Positions 23,481-48,315 are shown, numbered from the stretch's first letter. The stretch: 64,000 nucleotides of DNA from Escherichia coli (GCF_029227855.1 NZ_CP074356.1); one strand, 5' to 3'. Program-made: numbers and translations. The notes: generated by a model from the letters alone, not told the origin.

Positions 23481-23514
23481 AAATAATTTCCGTAATAGTC
23501 AACTATGAAATTGT

Positions 23515-25542
23515 TTAGCCAAATCTGACCTTGCAGAACATAATTAATTTGCGGTAATAACGTATTACTCGCCCCGCTTTTTTTCTGGTAATAAACAACG
23601 GCTTGCGCGGCGTCTGGATCAAATATTCCGCCGCCTCTTCAACCGTAATAGGTTGTAGCCGTGTTGGGTGGATATAGGTTGGATAAACAATCAACGCCTG
23701 ATAGATCAAATCTGCTAACGTTAATTTTTGCTCGCGGCGCGGGCAGTGATGTTCATCAACGGTTAAACCCCAACCGGCATAGAAGGGCAGGCCGTAACAA
23801 TGAACTTGCTTGCCATGTAATAACGCTTCAAACCCGGACAATGATGTCATGGTGTGCACTTCATCTGCGCGCTGAATGCATTGAATAATATCTGCGTCCA
23901 GTGCCTGATAATCAGCGAGTTCAGCAATTAGTTCTGCCGGAATGTCGCCCTTGCGATTCCCCACCAGTACATCCGGGTGCGGTTTATAAACAATGTAGGC
24001 GTGCGGATTACGCTCGCGTACTGTGCGTAATAACTCAAGGTTGCTCTTAATCGAGACAGTGCCTGTTTTAATAGAGGCATCGTCCTCTACCTGACCCGGC
24101 ACCAGGATAACTTTTTTATCTTTGGCTTCGGCTGGTAGAGAGAAATTGGCTCCCAGGTTGTACTTACTCAGTTTGCTTTCAACCAGTCGCTGGCGTAATT
24201 TTTCAGCTCGCATCTGCTGCGCCAGCGTTAACTGGCTGTGATTAAGCAGGACTTCCAGGTCGCTGGGGCGCGTGGCGTCATAGTAGATCCCGCGTTTATC
24301 CAGTACCAACGATAGCGGCGGCAGCAGGTCAGAGCCAAGTCCGGATGAACGCAGAAAACCATCTTCCATTCGCCATAACGGCAGTGATTTTTGTTGCGCT
24401 TCGGCTAGCCATTGCTGTTCTCCCTTTACACCCCATACCACGCAAGCCGTCGCCGCAGTACAGCGGCGTGAATAACTCAGTCTGTTTGTTGCGGTACGCA
24501 AGAAAGGTTTCAGGATTGCCGACTTCCACAGCGTTAAGCCTGGCGACCATAAATAGCCATTACGCTGTTGCTGATGGTTGCGCTGTAATTGCAGCCATTG
24601 CAGTACGGTAAACAGATCGCTTGCGGCCCCCGTGAGCGGGTCGATATAGCGACAGTAACGCAGGTATGCAGCGGCAAAAAGTTCTTCCAGCGTGGCAGAA
24701 CCGCGTCGGGCAGATAACAAAGCGGACTGCGGATGGCGATCGTCGGTTAAGCCCCAGCCTGCATACCAGGGCTGGCCGAAACATGTTACTGGTTTTCCTG
24801 CCAGCAAGGCTTCAAAGCCGTATTGGGATGTCACGACGTAAACCCGGGAAACGTGTCGCAACAGCGACTGCGGGCTGACATTCTCGGCAATCAAACGTAC
24901 TCGTTGCGTGGCGCGCAGATCAGCGAAATAACCTGTTTTCTTTCCTTCCAGGACATCCGGATGCACCTTCACCCAAATTTCGGCTTGAGGATTTTCCGCC
25001 ATCGCGGCTTCCAGCATGGCAGCAAACTCATGCGGGCCAGCATTGCCATACGTCACTGACATATCATTAAATGTCTGATCGACAACCAGAACGATGTCTG
25101 AACGTTCTGACTCATCAGCCACAAACGCAGGTGCCAGGTTATATTTCGACAAATCCCCGGTCACGATGGTGTGCATCGCTTCTCTGGCCAGGCTTATCAG
25201 AGCTGTATTTCCGGCTTTATCCTGTACCAGTTTCTCCAGTGCTGAAGGCTTGCTGGCATCGTAGTAAATGCCACAATCATCCACCACCAGAGAAAGCGGC
25301 GGCTCGCCATTGACGCCAAGATCCAGCGAACGCACAAATCCATCTTCCAGACGAATGACGGGTTTTCCCGCTGCTTTGGCGATGGCGACTGGTTTCGCCG
25401 CGCTGGGACGATGTCCCCACACGGCGATAGCATCAACTTCTTGTGGAACAGGGCGCAGCAGAGAAAGTTTCTGGCACGGTTGCGCCAGAAATTTCTCCAG
25501 ATGCGGAATACGCCAGATACCGGACGAGAAAATGCCAATCAT
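23515..25542 (-). CDS. kpsC: capsule biosynthesis protein KpsC (dual-module beta-Kdo transferase)
   Basis: 675 aa with two repeated modules each containing EDGF[VL]RS...GFEALL...FYAGWGLT; overlaps kpsU stop. Confidence 0.9.
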
Positions 25543-40959: not shown

Positions 40960-41670
40960 ATTGTGCACAGAAAACCCCCAGCTAGGCTGGGGGTTCCGGA
41001 AAGCTTTCAGCTTTGAGCCAGTTATTAAAACCCCTTTTGATTTGTTAAAACACTTTGCGGTCTGGCAACTGCAAGTGTCAAACAAGAAATCAAAAGGGGG
41101 TCCCAATGGGGAACGAAAAGAGCTTAGCGCACACCCGATGGAACTGTAAATATCACATAGTTTTTGCGCCAAAATACCGAAGACAGGTGTTCTACAGAGA
41201 GAAGCGTAGAGCAATAGGCAGTATTTTGAGAAAGCTGTGTGAGTGGAAAAGCGTACGGATTCTGGAAGCTGAATGCTGTGCAGATCATATCCATATGCTT
41301 GTGGAGATCCCGCCCAAAATGAGCGTATCCGGGTTTATGGGATATCTGAAAGGGAAAAGCAGTCTGATGCTTTACGAGCAGTTTGGTGATTTGAAATTCA
41401 AATACAGGAACAGGGAGTTCTGGTGCAGAGGGTACTACGTCGATACAGTGGGTAAGAACACGGCGAAGATACAGGATTACATAAAGCACCAGCTTGAAGA
41501 GGATAAAATGGGAGAGCAGTTATCGATTCCCTATCCGGGCAGCCCGTTTACGGGCCGTAAGTAACGAAGTTGGATGCAAATGTCAGATCGTGTGCGCCTG
41601 TTAGGGCGCGGCTGGTAAGAGAGCCTTATAGGCGCATTTGAAAAACCTCCGGCTATGCCGGAGGATATTT
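40960..41670 (+). mobile_element. IS200 insertion sequence (IS200/IS605 family); ends approximate
   Basis: Left-end perfect palindrome aaacccccagc ta gctgggggtt and second RBS-sequestering stem-loop (ccccttttgatt...aatcaaaagggg) upstream of tnpA; total size about 0.7 kb fits IS200. Confidence 0.7.
41106..41564 (+). CDS. tnpA: IS200 transposase TnpA (Y1 HUH transposase)
   Basis: 152 aa; HUH motif HIHML and catalytic Tyr region (FWCRGYYVDTVG). Confidence 0.85.
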   Translation: MGNEKSLAHTRWNCKYHIVFAPKYRRQVFYREKRRAIGSILRKLCEWKSVRILEAECCADHIHMLVEIPPKMSVSGFMGYLKGKSSLMLYEQFGDLKFKYRNREFWCRGYYVDTVGKNTAKIQDYIKHQLEEDKMGEQLSIPYPGSPFTGRK

Positions 41671-43973: not shown

Positions 43974-44028
43974 CTCATGTTAAGTACCTTTGCCGGATAA
44001 TATAAAAAGTTATCCGGCAAATTATTTT

Positions 44029-45330
44029 TTACATTAGCCCTAGTAGCTGTGGAATGAACAAGGATATTTGCGGGATGTAAGTGATCATCATCAACGCGAT
44101 TAACAATGCGGCATAAAATGGCAGCAATGGTTTGATCAAATGTTGAATCTTCACACCTGAAATAGAACAACCAACAAATAGCGCACTACCCACCGGCGGT
44201 GTTAACAGCCCAATACAAAGGTTGGCCACCATCATAATACCGAAATGTACCGGATCCATTCCCAGCTCTTGTGCAATCGGCAAGAAGATTGGTGTGAAGA
44301 TTAGTACAGCCGGTGTCATGTCCATAAAGATGCCGACAATTAATAAGACGATATTAATCAGCAGCAATATGATCAGTGGGTTATCAGAAATCCCCATCAA
44401 CGCGTCGCTGATCATATAAGGAATATCAGCATTGGTCATTGACCAGGACATGCCCACGGAAAAACCGATCAACAGTAATACAATCGAAGTGGTAACAACC
44501 GATTCCAGAATCAGTTTGGGTAAATCGCGCCATTTTACTTCCCGGTAAATCAGCACCGAGAGAATAAATGTGTAGACAACGGCAATCGCAGACGCTTCAG
44601 TTGCGGTAAAAATGCCGCCCAGAATGCCGCCCATTACAATGAACACCAGAAGCAAACTTGGTAAGGCATCCAGAAACGCTTTACAGGCCTGAGCAAAGGT
44701 TGCTCTTTCTGAAAGTGGGTAGCCACGGCGTTTAGCAATAATGCCGCAGACTATCATTACCGCAAGACCCATTAAGATCCCTGGCAAATATCCCGCCATA
44801 AATAGCGATGCTACAGAAACGCCGCCAGCTGTCAGGGAAAACACAATTAACACGTTTGAGGGCGGTATCAGTAATCCAGTAATACAGGATGAGACGTTTA
44901 CAGCGGTAGAAAATGCCGGATCATAACCTTGTTTGGTCTGAATGGGATTCAGTGTGCCACCAACGGCAGCAGCTGCCGCAACGGCTGAACCAGAAATGGA
45001 ACCAAACATCATATTCGCCAGGACGTTCACATGACCAAGTGAACTAGGAACCCGACCAACCATTACCTGGGCGAGGTTAATCAAACGTATCGCAATACCG
45101 CCGCTGTTCATCAGCGTTCCGGCAAAGATGAAAAAGGGGATTGCCAATAGGGCAAAGTTATCCAGTCCATTAGCCAGTCGCTGCGAAACAGTGATTGCCG
45201 CGATATCCCAGGGAAACATCAACAGCATTGAAGCTACAGTGGCAATACCGATTGAGAACGAAATGGGCACACCAATAAAGACCAGCACAAAAAAACAGCC
45301 AAATAGTGTAAGCGCAATATAACTATCCAT
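44029..45330 (-). CDS. TRAP transporter large permease (DctM family)
   Basis: 433 aa, about 12 hydrophobic segments; stop/start overlap with the small permease gene. Confidence 0.8.
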   Translation of the reverse strand: MDSYIALTLFGCFFVLVFIGVPISFSIGIATVASMLLMFPWDIAAITVSQRLANGLDNFALLAIPFFIFAGTLMNSGGIAIRLINLAQVMVGRVPSSLGHVNVLANMMFGSISGSAVAAAAAVGGTLNPIQTKQGYDPAFSTAVNVSSCITGLLIPPSNVLIVFSLTAGGVSVASLFMAGYLPGILMGLAVMIVCGIIAKRRGYPLSERATFAQACKAFLDALPSLLLVFIVMGGILGGIFTATEASAIAVVYTFILSVLIYREVKWRDLPKLILESVVTTSIVLLLIGFSVGMSWSMTNADIPYMISDALMGISDNPLIILLLINIVLLIVGIFMDMTPAVLIFTPIFLPIAQELGMDPVHFGIMMVANLCIGLLTPPVGSALFVGCSISGVKIQHLIKPLLPFYAALLIALMMITYIPQISLFIPQLLGLM

Positions 45331-45842
45331 TAACTGGCCTCCTGCGCAGGTTGTTTCAGTTGTTGAATGCTTTGATTAATAAAACACAAGGCATAAAACA
45401 TCATCACCACTCCACTTAATGGCAGAATGATATATACGTATCCCATCGGTATTTGCATCGCGGCAGATACTTGTGATGTTGCCAGCGTTTTATCAATTAA
45501 TTTCAGGCCACCAGTCACAATGACCGAACCGGCAAAACCTAAAATGAGAATGTTAATGACTATACTAAGAAGTAATTGCTTGCGCTTATTCAGGGCGAGA
45601 GCAAATAAATCGATAGAGAGATGTCTCTGCGCGCCGACGGTATATGCAGCACCTAATAATCCTACCCAGATCATCAAAAAGCGTGCCAGCTCATCGGTTA
45701 ATGTACTTGGCTGGTTAAGTACGTAGCGGCTAAATACTTGCCAGACTACGCATACAACCAGAGCAAGCATTACGGCGACAGAAAACGCGGCAATGACGCG
45801 GTCTACCGCAAGTTTCAGGCGGTTAAATATCATTGTAAGCAT
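45330..45842 (-). CDS. TRAP transporter small permease (DctQ family)
   Basis: 170 aa with four hydrophobic segments, immediately upstream of the large permease. Confidence 0.75.
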   Translation of the reverse strand: MLTMIFNRLKLAVDRVIAAFSVAVMLALVVCVVWQVFSRYVLNQPSTLTDELARFLMIWVGLLGAAYTVGAQRHLSIDLFALALNKRKQLLLSIVINILILGFAGSVIVTGGLKLIDKTLATSQVSAAMQIPMGYVYIILPLSGVVMMFYALCFINQSIQQLKQPAQEAS

Positions 45843-45877
45843 CCTGGAAAATCAGGGCCAGAGACTGGCCCGAAATA

Positions 45878-46864
45878 TTATTGAGCAGCGTTGTCGAATT
45901 TCTCTAACAAAGCAGCTTGTTTTGGATCTTTTTTGAAGTCGTCAAACAGAGGTTGAACTGCGGCACGGAATGGGGCTTTATCAACCTTAACGATTTCACC
46001 ACCCATAGCTTTCGCTTGAGCACGTGTGTCAGCGTCAATTTTTTCCCACAATTTTTGTTGATAAGCTTCGGATTTCTTCGCCGCTGTTTCGAGGATTTGT
46101 TGCTGTTCTGGGGTTAATTTATTCCATGTTTTGGTGGAGATAACCAAAAAGTCAGGAATTGAGGCATGTTCATCTTCAGAAAAGACTTTGGCAATTTCGA
46201 TATGTCGAGTCTGCACCCAGGAAGGCACGTTATTTTCTGCGCCATCTACTACACCTTGCTGCATCGCAGTATAAACTTCGCCAAATGAAATTGGAGTGGG
46301 TGAGCCACCCATCAGTTCAATCATTTTGATGGTGGTCGGGCTTGGCTGAACACGAATTTTCAGCCCTTTAAGATCTTCTGGCTTAGTAATCGGTTTTTTC
46401 GCATAGAAACTGCGTGTACCCGCTACATAAGCTGATAAAGCAAAAAAGCCTTTATCTTTTGTTGAATCCATAATTTCTTTACCAACTTCACCAAAAACCA
46501 CTTTGTTGAAGTGCGCCTGATCTTTAAATAAGAACGGCAAATTATAGATAGCATAAATATTATCAAAAGACTCCAGATCACTGGCGGAACCTTTGGTCAT
46601 ATCCAGTGCACCATTTTGCAACAACTCCATAGTTTCTCGCGCATTACCCATCTGGCTGCTGGGGTAAATACGGATCACCATATTACCTTTTGACAGCTGT
46701 TTTACTTCTTTCGCCAGCTTTTCAAAACTCTGATGTACAACATGACTTCTTTCCAGGTTGTGTGCTAACTTTAACGTCACTTTTTCTGCGGCGTTTACGC
46801 CAGTGCTAACCAGAGCCAGCAAGGATGCGCAGACTAATGAGCGGGTAAATGACCTCATTTTCAT
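45878..46864 (-). CDS. TRAP transporter periplasmic solute-binding protein (DctP family)
   Basis: 328 aa with signal peptide (ALVSTGVNAAEK) and DctP-like architecture; first gene of a three-gene operon. Confidence 0.8.
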   Translation of the reverse strand: MKMRSFTRSLVCASLLALVSTGVNAAEKVTLKLAHNLERSHVVHQSFEKLAKEVKQLSKGNMVIRIYPSSQMGNARETMELLQNGALDMTKGSASDLESFDNIYAIYNLPFLFKDQAHFNKVVFGEVGKEIMDSTKDKGFFALSAYVAGTRSFYAKKPITKPEDLKGLKIRVQPSPTTIKMIELMGGSPTPISFGEVYTAMQQGVVDGAENNVPSWVQTRHIEIAKVFSEDEHASIPDFLVISTKTWNKLTPEQQQILETAAKKSEAYQQKLWEKIDADTRAQAKAMGGEIVKVDKAPFRAAVQPLFDDFKKDPKQAALLEKFDNAAQ

Positions 46865-47074
46865 AAAAAAACTCCCTGTTGAAGAATGGAAATTGGTTGA
46901 TATCTAATTGTGCTTATCAGTGCTTTGTGCGACAAATTGGTTAACCTGTCTGACAACTTGTCTATGTTTATCACAACTTGAAATAAAGTCAGAAATTAAA
47001 TATTAATTTTGTGCGCCAGGTTGTACATGTTTATAATCAATAAATGATGAGTAAATATTCAGTAAATATATATA

Positions 47075-47095
47075 ATAAATATCGTCGATATTTAT
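47075..47095. promoter_or_regulatory. perfect 10 bp inverted repeat (candidate operator) upstream of the TRAP operon
   Basis: ataaatatcg t cgatatttat, flanked by direct repeats attcagtaa, in the AT-rich region about 210 bp upstream of the binding-protein gene. Confidence 0.3.
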
Positions 47096-47150
47096 TCAGT
47101 AAGAAATATATTTTTGCCGAAGTTAATTAACGGGGGGGTTAAAAGAAGTG

Positions 47151-47176
47151 ATTAATGCGCCCGCAGGCGCATTAAT
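47151..47176 (-). terminator. hairpin immediately downstream of hemW (probable terminator)
   Basis: Perfect 11 bp stem attaatgcgcc / ggcgcattaat with 4 nt loop, 3 nt after the hemW stop. Confidence 0.5.
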
Positions 47177-47178
47177 GA

Positions 47179-48315
47179 TTACTCAGCGAGGAATAATTCA
47201 AGAAGTGAGTTTAAGAATAATTTACCATGCTTGGTTATCTGCCAGTAATCCGCACATTCTGTGAGATAACCTTGAGCGATAGCCTCGTCTAACTGAGAGC
47301 GAATAACTTCTTCAGAAAGGCCAGTATATTGGCTAAACTCCACGCGCGGCGCGGCCTCAAGCAGACGGAAGCGATTCATAAAGAACTCAAACGGTTTATC
47401 TGCAGCTTCGACATCACGCTGGCTTTCCAGATATCTTCCCTGCATAAAACCACGCGGATGACGCGTTTTGGTGGTACGCAGAATGCGACCATCCGGGAAG
47501 GTGACTTTGCCGTGCGCGCCGCAGCCAATACCAATGTAGTCGCCAAATCGCCAGTAGTTGAGATTGTGCTGGCACTGATAACCTGGTTTGGCGTAAGCGG
47601 ATGTTTCATACTGCTGATAGCCCGCTGCGGTTAATAACTGATGCCCCTGTTCGAATATATCCCACAACGCATCGTCGTCCGGCAGCACCGGCGGGCGAGA
47701 GCCAAACAGCGTATTAGGTTCGATGGTCAGTTGATACCAGGAAAGATGCGGCGGATTCAGTTCAATAGCCTGGCGCAGATCGCCTAGCGCCTCTTCCAGT
47801 GATTGATCCGGCAGCCCATGCATCAAATCAAGGTTAAAGCTACGTAACCCTAAACCGCTCGCCAGCTTTGCCGCTCGTTTCGCTTCTTGCGGGCCATGAA
47901 TGCGCCCAAGTCGTTTCAGCTTTTCTTCGCTAAAACTCTGCACACCAATAGAGATGCGGTTCACACCAGCACGCTGATAATCGACAAAGCGATCGGCTTC
48001 AACCGTACCAGGGTTCGCTTCCATAGTAATTTCTGCATCCGCTGCCAGCGGCAAACGCGCACGCACGCCGTCCAGCAGCGTTTGCATCGCCGGGCCGGAA
48101 AGCAGGCTCGGCGTACCACCGCCAATAAAGATTGTCTGCACTTCACGGCCCTGAGCGTAAGCCACGTCGTTGTCCAGATCGTTAAGCAGATGCTGAACAT
48201 AATCGTCGTGCGGCACTTCTCCTTTCAACGCGTGAGAGTTGAAATCGCAGTACGGGCATTTCTGCACGCACCACGGGATGTGAATGTAGAGACTCAGCGG
48301 CGGTAATTTAACCAT
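47179..48315 (-). CDS. hemW: radical SAM heme chaperone HemW (YggW)
   Basis: CxxxCxxC motif (CVQKCPYC) and HemN-like C-terminal domain. Confidence 0.9.

Follow-up and report, generated by a model that had tools for sequence, protein, structure and literature searches.

Hexuronates from mucus glucuronides and dietary pectin can be used by Escherichia coli as carbon sources in the gut, and in the biology of strain K-12 the MFS carrier ExuT, a hexuronate:H+ symporter, is to our knowledge the sole recognized route for their uptake. A different kind of system is described from Salmonella Typhimurium, in which STM3169, the binding protein of the TRAP transporter STM3169-STM3171, takes D-glucuronate with a Kd of 0.17-0.25 μM (Herman et al. 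2020, PMC7660916). Here we analyze a three-gene TRAP operon, dctP-dctQ-dctM, that lies on the minus strand at 44029-46864, flanked by yggM and hemW, in a 64,000-nucleotide stretch of E. coli DNA (NZ_CP074356.1, assembly GCF_029227855.1; the whole stretch is called the window below). We consider it an intact uptake system, most likely for galacturonate and/or glucuronate and repressed by ExuR, that is ancestral at this site and was lost from K-12 and most other E. coli.

Several DctP-type binding proteins with hexuronate ligands are known from crystal structures. 4N91 (Apre_1383) contains D-glucuronate, 4MHF (Bpro_3107) has been seen with both D-glucuronate and D-galacturonate, and 4N15 served as the modelling template for STM3169 (PMC7660916); the ligands are galacturonate in 4N8Y and glucuronate in 4X8R (PMC11668362). 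These proteins belong to a hexuronate-binding set from the Enzyme Function Initiative, made up of 4N91, 4MHF/4MIJ (Bpro_3107), 4N15/4N17 (Bamb_6123), 4X8R, 4N8Y, 4OVR and 4XFE and drawn from beta- and alpha-proteobacteria and a Firmicute. We take 4OVR, 4N17 and 4XFE to be hexuronate binders as well. In K-12 itself, YiaMNO (2,3-diketo-L-gulonate) is the only TRAP transporter that we know of.

An intact TRAP operon beside hemW

The window matches E. coli strain MRSN346647 with 100% identity. Open reading frame (ORF) calling gave three uninterrupted genes, all on the minus strand. dctP (45878-46864) encodes a periplasmic solute-binding protein of 328 residues (Pfam DctP, PF03480, 9e-85); dctQ (45330-45833 with the RefSeq start, or from 45842 by the longest ORF) encodes a small membrane subunit of 167 residues (PF04290, 1.5e-30); and dctM (44029-45330) encodes a large membrane subunit of 433 residues (PF06808, 3.8e-120, profile positions 1-413 of 413). 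All three Pfam matches are full-length, and the three products also exceed the cut-offs of NCBIfam TRAP subfamily models, among them TIGR00787 for DctP (286 bits versus a cut-off of 175) and TIGR00786 for DctM (467 versus 268). Hydropathy gives DctM about 12-13 hydrophobic segments, and the N-terminus of DctP, MKMRSFTRSLVCASLLALVSTGVNA followed by AEK, is signal-like as judged by eye, with the signal ending VNA before AEK. The dctQ stop and dctM start codons overlap (TAATG), which indicates translational coupling. Within the operon there is no ABC ATPase gene, consistent with the ATP-independent uptake predicted for a TRAP transporter. Every property of a DctP-type TRAP transporter (TC 2.A.56) that can be tested by sequence is thus present, while RefSeq labels the genes only generically ("TRAP transporter substrate-binding protein").

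A preliminary description of this DNA had recognized a complete DctP/DctQ/DctM operon, lower in GC content than the surrounding core genes and without a neighboring regulator or catabolic gene. All of this holds: the operon has a GC content of 0.42-0.46 and its flanks one of 0.52-0.55, and the RefSeq annotation of the window strain shows neither a regulator nor a catabolic gene beside the operon.

The operon is distinct from both enterobacterial TRAP systems named above. YiaMNO shares the family and the three-gene layout, but the window proteins fall far below the corresponding NCBIfam equivalog cut-offs (YiaN, 294 versus 800 bits; YiaM, 38 versus 260 bits), and it has another locus and another predicted substrate. 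STM3169-STM3171 is closer in kind, as an enterobacterial DctP/Q/M operon without adjacent catabolic genes and with the same best relatives in the PDB, but STM3169 is a paralogue with 46% identity to the window DctP. We considered whether the window operon could be its orthologue and rejected this, because residue numbering and the 46% identity assign STM3169 to a second TRAP island, found between ygiQ and ftsP in B2 strains such as JJ1886. Besides dctPQM, that island encodes a FadR/GntR regulator and three dehydrogenases, namely a mannitol-dehydrogenase-family protein, a zinc alcohol dehydrogenase and an Ldh-family oxidoreductase. The binding protein of the island matches STM3169 exactly in its ligand residues and their numbering and is 46% identical to the window DctP; the window strain is without the island, and its ygiQ and ftsP are adjacent. 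In Salmonella LT2, STM3169 presumably lies away from hemW, judging by locus numbering (ansB being STM3106); this agrees with the absence of the LT2 species representative from our scan of species-representative genomes, which used exact peptide patterns that could miss it. Two easily confused E. coli TRAP systems can in this way be told apart, with the ygiQ-ftsP island as the orthologue of the virulence-associated Salmonella system.

The binding protein resembles hexuronate binders

In a search of PDB sequences, the best relatives of DctP are 4OVR, 4N15/4N17, 4LN5, 4MHF/4MIJ, 4X8R, 4N91, 4N8Y and 4XFE (E values of 1e-58 to 1e-68 for the top nine), with sialic-acid and C4-dicarboxylate binders much weaker (about 1e-40 and below). 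The Enzyme Function Initiative proteins are about 45-50% identical to DctP and have in common with it the uronate-holding residues, two arginines and one asparagine; they differ at position 75, which is glutamate in all those aligned and alanine in DctP.

Alignment places N36, L37, A75, R151, R171, N211 and D238 in the DctP pocket. Five of the seven residues that contact the ligand in STM3169 are kept, its N35, R150, R170, N210 and D237 corresponding to N36, R151, R171, N211 and D238. Among these, R171 aligns with the carboxylate-pairing arginine of STM3169 (R170) and does not vary among the orthologues. The preliminary description had named a lack of conserved ligand-coordinating residues as grounds for rejecting its reading; this arginine and most of the other ligand contacts are present.

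The gene context of distant orthologues is more telling still. In Aeromonas molluscorum, A. rivuli and Pantoea sp. IMH, a 60%-identical orthologue occurs in the order ygjV-uxaA-uxaB-uxaC <> dctP-dctQ-dctM-exuR, and the K-12 exu locus reads ygjV-uxaA-uxaC <> exuT-exuR. Because the orthologue occupies the exuT slot, the TRAP transporter appears to stand in for the hexuronate carrier ExuT in these bacteria. The association with hexuronate catabolic genes is seen in these Aeromonas (two species) and Pantoea orthologues and not in E. coli itself; the exu-locus proteins also have L37, and their residue at position 75 is likewise non-acidic. We regard this context as decisive for predicting a hexuronate substrate.

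Of the marks of a hexuronate-specific TRAP transporter, the ligands of the relatives and the gene association are both found, and the pocket agrees at five of seven positions. The substrate had earlier been called not deducible; the structural relatives, the orthologues in uxaCBA-exuR clusters and the ExuR-type operators described below instead point to hexuronates. A hexuronate is the most likely substrate, with D-galacturonate somewhat favored, because uxaB and uxaA are neighbors in the orthologue clusters, and D-glucuronate possible.

A predicted ExuR operator upstream of dctP

We aligned the 150 nt before dctP from about 40 species, including species in which the operon lies away from hemW. 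A common order emerges: TGTGA, box 1 (AGATGTCnGACAAC), exactly 12 nt, box 2 (ATGTCATACAG), box 3 (AGAT(A/G)T..ACCAATT), GGAG and the ATG. Boxes 1 and 2 each have a TGT-N3-ACA core, with centers 21 bp apart, and this core is typical of GntR/FadR-family operators. In the window these elements lie on the minus strand. Box 1 is AAGTTGTCAGACAGGTT (46943-46959), which we predict to be the ExuR operator; it starts 95 nt before the ATG, and a CRP-like site at 46958-46979 has its TGTGA half-site immediately ahead of it. The second operator position, box 2 (AATTTGTCGCACAAAGC, 46922-46938), follows 21 bp downstream of box 1 and is conserved in place and sequence in the roughly 40 species. Box 3 (AGATATCAACCAATTT, 46890-46905), 26-41 nt before the ATG, resembles the uxaC-proximal ACACCAATTT of K-12, and a ribosome-binding site, AGGGAG (46872-46877), stands 7 nt before the ATG, with GGAG present in all orthologues. 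The TGTGA is kept in nearly all orthologous promoters.

From 46 distinct box 1 and box 2 sites, taken only from species other than E. coli, we built a symmetrized 17-nt operator matrix and scanned 237 kb of E. coli DNA (474,000 positions), comprising the window and eight other loci. The highest score, 21.7, fell on AAGATGTCAGACAACTT in the region upstream of K-12 uxaB; box 1 of the window (AAGTTGTCAGACAGGTT) came second with 18.8, and AAGTTGTATGACAAGTT in the K-12 exuT operator region third with 17.8. Fourth, at 14.4, was CAGATGTCATACAGGTT inside K-12 uxaC, about 150 nt past its start; background was 13 or below. The DgoR operator scored 10.7, and the uxuA, uxuR and lgoR/lgoD promoters contained no match. 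At the exu locus of the window strain, the exuT site is the top match in 45 kb. As the best match outside known promoter regions, CAGATGTCATACAGGTT could be an auxiliary ExuR operator or a chance occurrence.

A matrix derived entirely from TRAP promoters thus picks out uxaB and exuT and passes over the uxu, lgo and DgoR sites, and on this basis we assign the operon to the ExuR regulon. The motifs of ExuR and UxuR presumably differ. exuT and uxaB are classical ExuR-repressed operons (PMC8612250). A study of a Klebsiella exuR mutant measured exuT and uxaC only. The window strain has exuR, exuT and uxaCA, with exuR about 185 kb from the TRAP operon, which agrees with the earlier suggestion of a regulator encoded elsewhere.

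CRP would probably activate the same promoter. The K-12 exuT promoter has a similar layout, with TTTGTGATGGCTCTCA, a CRP-type site containing TGTGA, followed by an ExuR box, AGTTGT..GACA. In Aeromonas and Pantoea, the spacer between uxaC and dctP has AAGATGTAGGACATTAA (matrix score 11.2) 79 nt ahead of the ATG, and also TTTGTGATGGTTCTCA, a near match to the TTTGTGATGGCTCTCA in front of the exuT operator in K-12. Klebsiella-type promoters have a GATAAT 29 nt past the center of TGTGA, as might be expected if CRP acted there in class II fashion and box 2 covered the start site. In E. coli the sequence separating boxes 1 and 2 has become GGTTAACCAATTT, identical to 13 nt of a site in the K-12 uxuA region; the match may be due to chance or may reflect an added UxuR input.

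Substrate and regulator weighed

A number of observations weigh against this assignment of substrate and regulator. On the side of the protein, two of the seven STM3169 ligand residues are changed in DctP (Q36 to L37 and E74 to A75), DctP is only about 46-50% identical to any characterized relative, and the exu-locus orthologues are only 60% identical to it, so specificity could have drifted. The searchable literature holds no experimental work on the hemW-adjacent TRAP transporter, and a comparative-genomic survey of hexuronate regulons may already list the operon. On the side of the promoter, box 2 is degenerate in E. coli, with TGTCGCACA where TGTCATACA is conserved, and scores 4.2; the right CRP half-sites are mostly poor; a generic sigma-70 scan of the spacer gave no minus-strand promoter, and no good -10 hexamer was evident there; and the matrix scan, at 237 kb, reached less than one genome. 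We also tried a UxuR/ExuR matrix made from eight K-12 sites that had been selected for matching the consensus AAATTGGTATACCAATTT. It gave only moderate scores, 11.8 and 11.75, in the E. coli dctP promoter and low scores in other genera; we dropped it because the selection of sites was circular and the matches were not conserved.

Given the changes at L37 and A75, the exact ligand could be another sugar acid, with architecture and ExuR control as described above: a keto-deoxy or unsaturated uronate, an aldonate, or a glycan-derived hexuronate derivative from host or plant. Two residues that form hydrogen bonds with glucuronate in STM3169 and Apre_1383 are indeed hydrophobic or small here, the replacements are invariant across the orthologous group (position 75 being alanine, or proline in Aeromonas), and related TRAP binding proteins take 2-keto-3-deoxygluconate (7BBR) and aldonates. 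However, all of the closest structural relatives bind hexuronates, and the dual-specificity protein 4MHF likewise has a small hydrophobic residue, and no glutamine, at the position of L37. The substitution of an orthologue for exuT in uxaCBA-exuR clusters also argues against a different ligand. We consider such a substrate unlikely and favor galacturonate and/or glucuronate.

The operon is probably ancestral at the hemW locus

The preliminary description had the operon inserted between yggM and hemW, at a site where K-12 has these two genes side by side. Comparison with a K-12-like genome bears out the second half of this statement: yggM and hemW are adjacent there, separated by a 154-bp REP-like (repetitive extragenic palindromic) spacer, and the operon is missing. 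Its absence is also the rule in the species. Complete copies are present in 1461 of 5426 complete E. coli genomes (27%), always on the chromosome and at the same site, and 28 further genomes have only part of the operon. The preliminary description would have been refuted had K-12 and most E. coli carried the three genes here, and they do not.

The distribution outside E. coli argues against an insertion. We collected 44 loci through look-ups of the encoding contigs and one scan of species-representative genomes, and compared them by tblastn with the window proteins. Homologues of the binding protein are 84-93% identical across the Enterobacteriaceae. The order rdgB-hemW-dctP-dctQ-dctM-(yggM/ansB)-yggN is found in Citrobacter (5 species), Kluyvera (6), Klebsiella (8), Pseudocitrobacter, Pluralibacter, Phytobacter, Leclercia, some Salmonella enterica and Escherichia sp. 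MOD1-EC7003. Altogether, more than 25 species in at least eight enterobacterial genera have the operon next to hemW; in Buttiauxella, Edwardsiella, Mangrovibacter and Enterobacillus it lies at other sites.

The genes have also diverged at the pace of their neighbors. Between E. coli and other genera, DNA identity is 77-82% for dctP, 74-80% for dctM and 71-79% for dctQ, compared with 77-82% for hemW, 79-83% for rdgB and 77-83% for yggN. The low GC content is shared as well, lying 5-12 points under that of the flanks in every genus compared. At the boundaries of the operon in E. coli we found no integrase or mobility genes, att sites, tRNA or direct-repeat junctions. With synteny across genera, flank-like divergence and a common GC deficit, the locus does not have the character of a horizontally acquired island, and we conclude that K-12 carries a deletion. 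The simplest history would place the operon next to hemW in the ancestor of Enterobacteriaceae, with later deletion on the lines of descent of K-12 and of most E. coli.

The empty sites and remnants fit such losses. In strain AVS0096 the gap between yggM and hemW is 64 bp. This difference between strains that lack the operon suggests more than one deletion, or later remodelling. The 154-bp spacer of the K-12-like genome contains several GCCGGATG/CATCCGGC REP-type palindromes and the 64-bp gap of AVS0096 contains one. Pieces of the operon in some genomes indicate that decay continues in some lineages; examples are 50EVA, 06-00048 and BS-04, of which one keeps 75%; in the others about 200-330 bp are left, under the annotation "TRAP transporter small permease".

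Carriers have two allele groups. The first (at least 98.7% identical) includes the ST131 strains JJ1886 and EC958, and the second (about 97.8% identical) is found in O103 and O111:H8 Shiga-toxin-producing E. coli and in mouse isolates. In the last 240 nt or so of hemW (47179-47420), the end that adjoins the operon, E. coli alleles share only 82-91% identity, versus 95-98% elsewhere in the gene. Nearly all of these changes are synonymous and leave the protein unaltered, and GC content at third codon positions in this segment is 0.44 in the TRAP-positive window allele versus 0.57 in K-12. This pattern suggests an old or recombining haplotype boundary at the junction between presence and absence.

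The polymorphic end of hemW would also fit a recombinational swap of presence and absence alleles, and together with the reduced GC content and the patchy occurrence in 27% of genomes it could be read as the trace of an island that some E. coli lineages gained recently, by horizontal transfer into the yggM-hemW gap. That history is largely refuted, and we give it hardly any credence: it conflicts with the hemW-adjacent position shared by the other genera, with divergence equal to that of the core flanks and a GC deficit in all genera, with junctions free of mobility genes, att sites and tRNA, and with the REP-type filler and partial remnants at sites without the operon. Re-spread of the ancestral allele within E. 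coli by recombination is a separate matter from insertion of foreign DNA, and may have contributed.

Another question is whether the copies that remain in E. coli are decaying, poorly expressed relics heading for loss themselves. In E. coli, both box 2 and the putative -10 region depart from the consensus of the other genera, most strains have lost the operon, and the 28 partial copies contain fragments only. Against this, all three ORFs are full-length in the 1461 genomes, over alleles 2-3% apart, and box 1, box 3, the ribosome-binding site and the TGTGA site are all kept. Protein identity to other genera (85-95%) is also well above DNA identity (72-82%), which indicates purifying selection. 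We consider decay of the E. coli operon very unlikely.

One contamination issue deserves mention. Sequence of hemW-dctPQM at 99-100% identity to E. coli is also found on contigs assigned to Collinsella sp., Bacillota bacterium and Alicyclobacillaceae bacterium; these contigs are almost certainly E. coli DNA mis-binned into metagenome-assembled genomes.

Proposed mechanism and significance

In the mechanism we propose, the operon would import hexuronates at high affinity alongside ExuT, which is expected to have lower affinity. The two share their predicted substrates and their predicted repressor but are unrelated in family and mechanism: ExuT is a single-component carrier without a binding protein, and much higher affinity is expected of the TRAP transporter. 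The window strain holds both. By analogy with the family, periplasmic DctP would capture the sugar acid, with R171 holding the carboxylate and R151, N211, D238 and N36 as further contacts. Loaded DctP would then hand the substrate to DctQ/DctM for import driven by an ion gradient, and the imported sugar acid would enter the UxaC/UxaBA/UxuAB pathway encoded elsewhere in the genome.

Transcription would start from a promoter within 46920-46980. ExuR, a member of the GntR/FadR family, is predicted to repress it from two TGT-N3-ACA operators 21 bp apart, of which box 1 appears strong and box 2 has decayed in E. coli; CRP would probably activate through the conserved TGTGA just upstream of box 1. 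Between dctP and dctQ, a scan for terminator-like structures found a GC-rich hairpin followed by a T-run (45855-45871, minus strand). This hairpin is likely a partial terminator or stabilizer that gives surplus binding protein, probably raising the ratio of DctP to the membrane subunits.

If this scheme is correct, about a quarter of sequenced E. coli have a second, binding-protein-dependent hexuronate route under the same repressor, which could matter at low hexuronate concentrations. Carriers include the pandemic ST131 clone and O103/O111 Shiga-toxin producers, and most of the Klebsiella, Citrobacter and Kluyvera genomes examined carry the operon as well. A generically annotated operon would gain a specific, testable function and regulator. 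The locus also illustrates that a gene "missing from K-12" can reflect a deletion in K-12 and not an island.

A more elaborate scheme can be drawn from the same observations. The hemW-adjacent transporter might be a distinct scavenger of the hexuronate family, its L37/A75 pocket conferring a specificity undescribed for TRAP binding proteins, for example one strict for galacturonate or one for some modified or unsaturated uronate that host mucus or pectin in the diet supplies. Niche-dependent selection would hold the polymorphism, retaining the operon in ST131 and the O103/O111 Shiga-toxin producers and losing it in K-12-like strains, and the 3' end of hemW would mark old junction alleles. We offer this as speculation that is unlikely to hold.

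An inverted repeat upstream of the conserved promoter

The preliminary description also pointed to a perfect inverted repeat with flanking direct repeats at 47075-47095 as a candidate operator. The structure is real and slightly larger than first given, AATAAATATCG-T-CGATATTTATT at 47074-47096, with perfect 11-bp arms around a 1-nt center and the direct repeat TATTCAGTAA on either side, at 47056 and 47093. The proposed role fared less well. The repeat lies about 210-230 bp before the ATG in a variable, AT-rich spacer, upstream of all conserved elements, and the conserved boxes are 120-150 bp nearer dctP. Promoter alignments revealed no counterpart in Citrobacter, Salmonella, Klebsiella, Leclercia or Buttiauxella, and in Escherichia sp. 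MOD1-EC7003 two uncompensated substitutions break the symmetry. We therefore rejected the repeat as a conserved operator.

It might nonetheless, with its direct repeats, be a functional operator to which a further, Escherichia-specific regulator binds, an arrangement compatible with ExuR control. When the 314-bp spacer was shuffled 2000 times with dinucleotides preserved, arms of 11 bp arose in only 4 cases (P about 0.002), and the E. coli M8 allele, itself divergent, has an identical repeat. The restriction to Escherichia, the broken symmetry in MOD1-EC7003, the position outside the conserved control region and the failure to match any nameable consensus make this quite improbable, and we place control of the operon at the conserved boxes.

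Flanking features and minor observations

Hairpins found in the scan for terminator-like structures delimit the operon on both sides. Between the convergent yggM and dctM, a hairpin with a 13-bp stem (43989-44021) is probably a bidirectional terminator. At the other end, the hemW terminator hairpin (47151-47176, minus strand) forms the upstream limit of the TRAP promoter region and is kept in E. coli alleles, Leclercia and Salmonella.

Farther from the operon, a tnpA gene of the IS200C type (Y1 transposase, Pfam 5e-38) lies between yggN and ansB at 41055-41564 (RefSeq coding sequence about 41106-41564); it is not at that spot in K-12-like and AVS0096 genomes. The discarded matrix of K-12 sites had 18 matches with scores of at least 10 in the window outside the dctP promoter. 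Two of them score as high as genuine K-12 sites: GATTTGTTAAAACACTTT (41039-41056), just upstream of the IS200 transposase, with 18.1, and AAATTGTTTAGCCAAATC (23508-23525) with 17.1.

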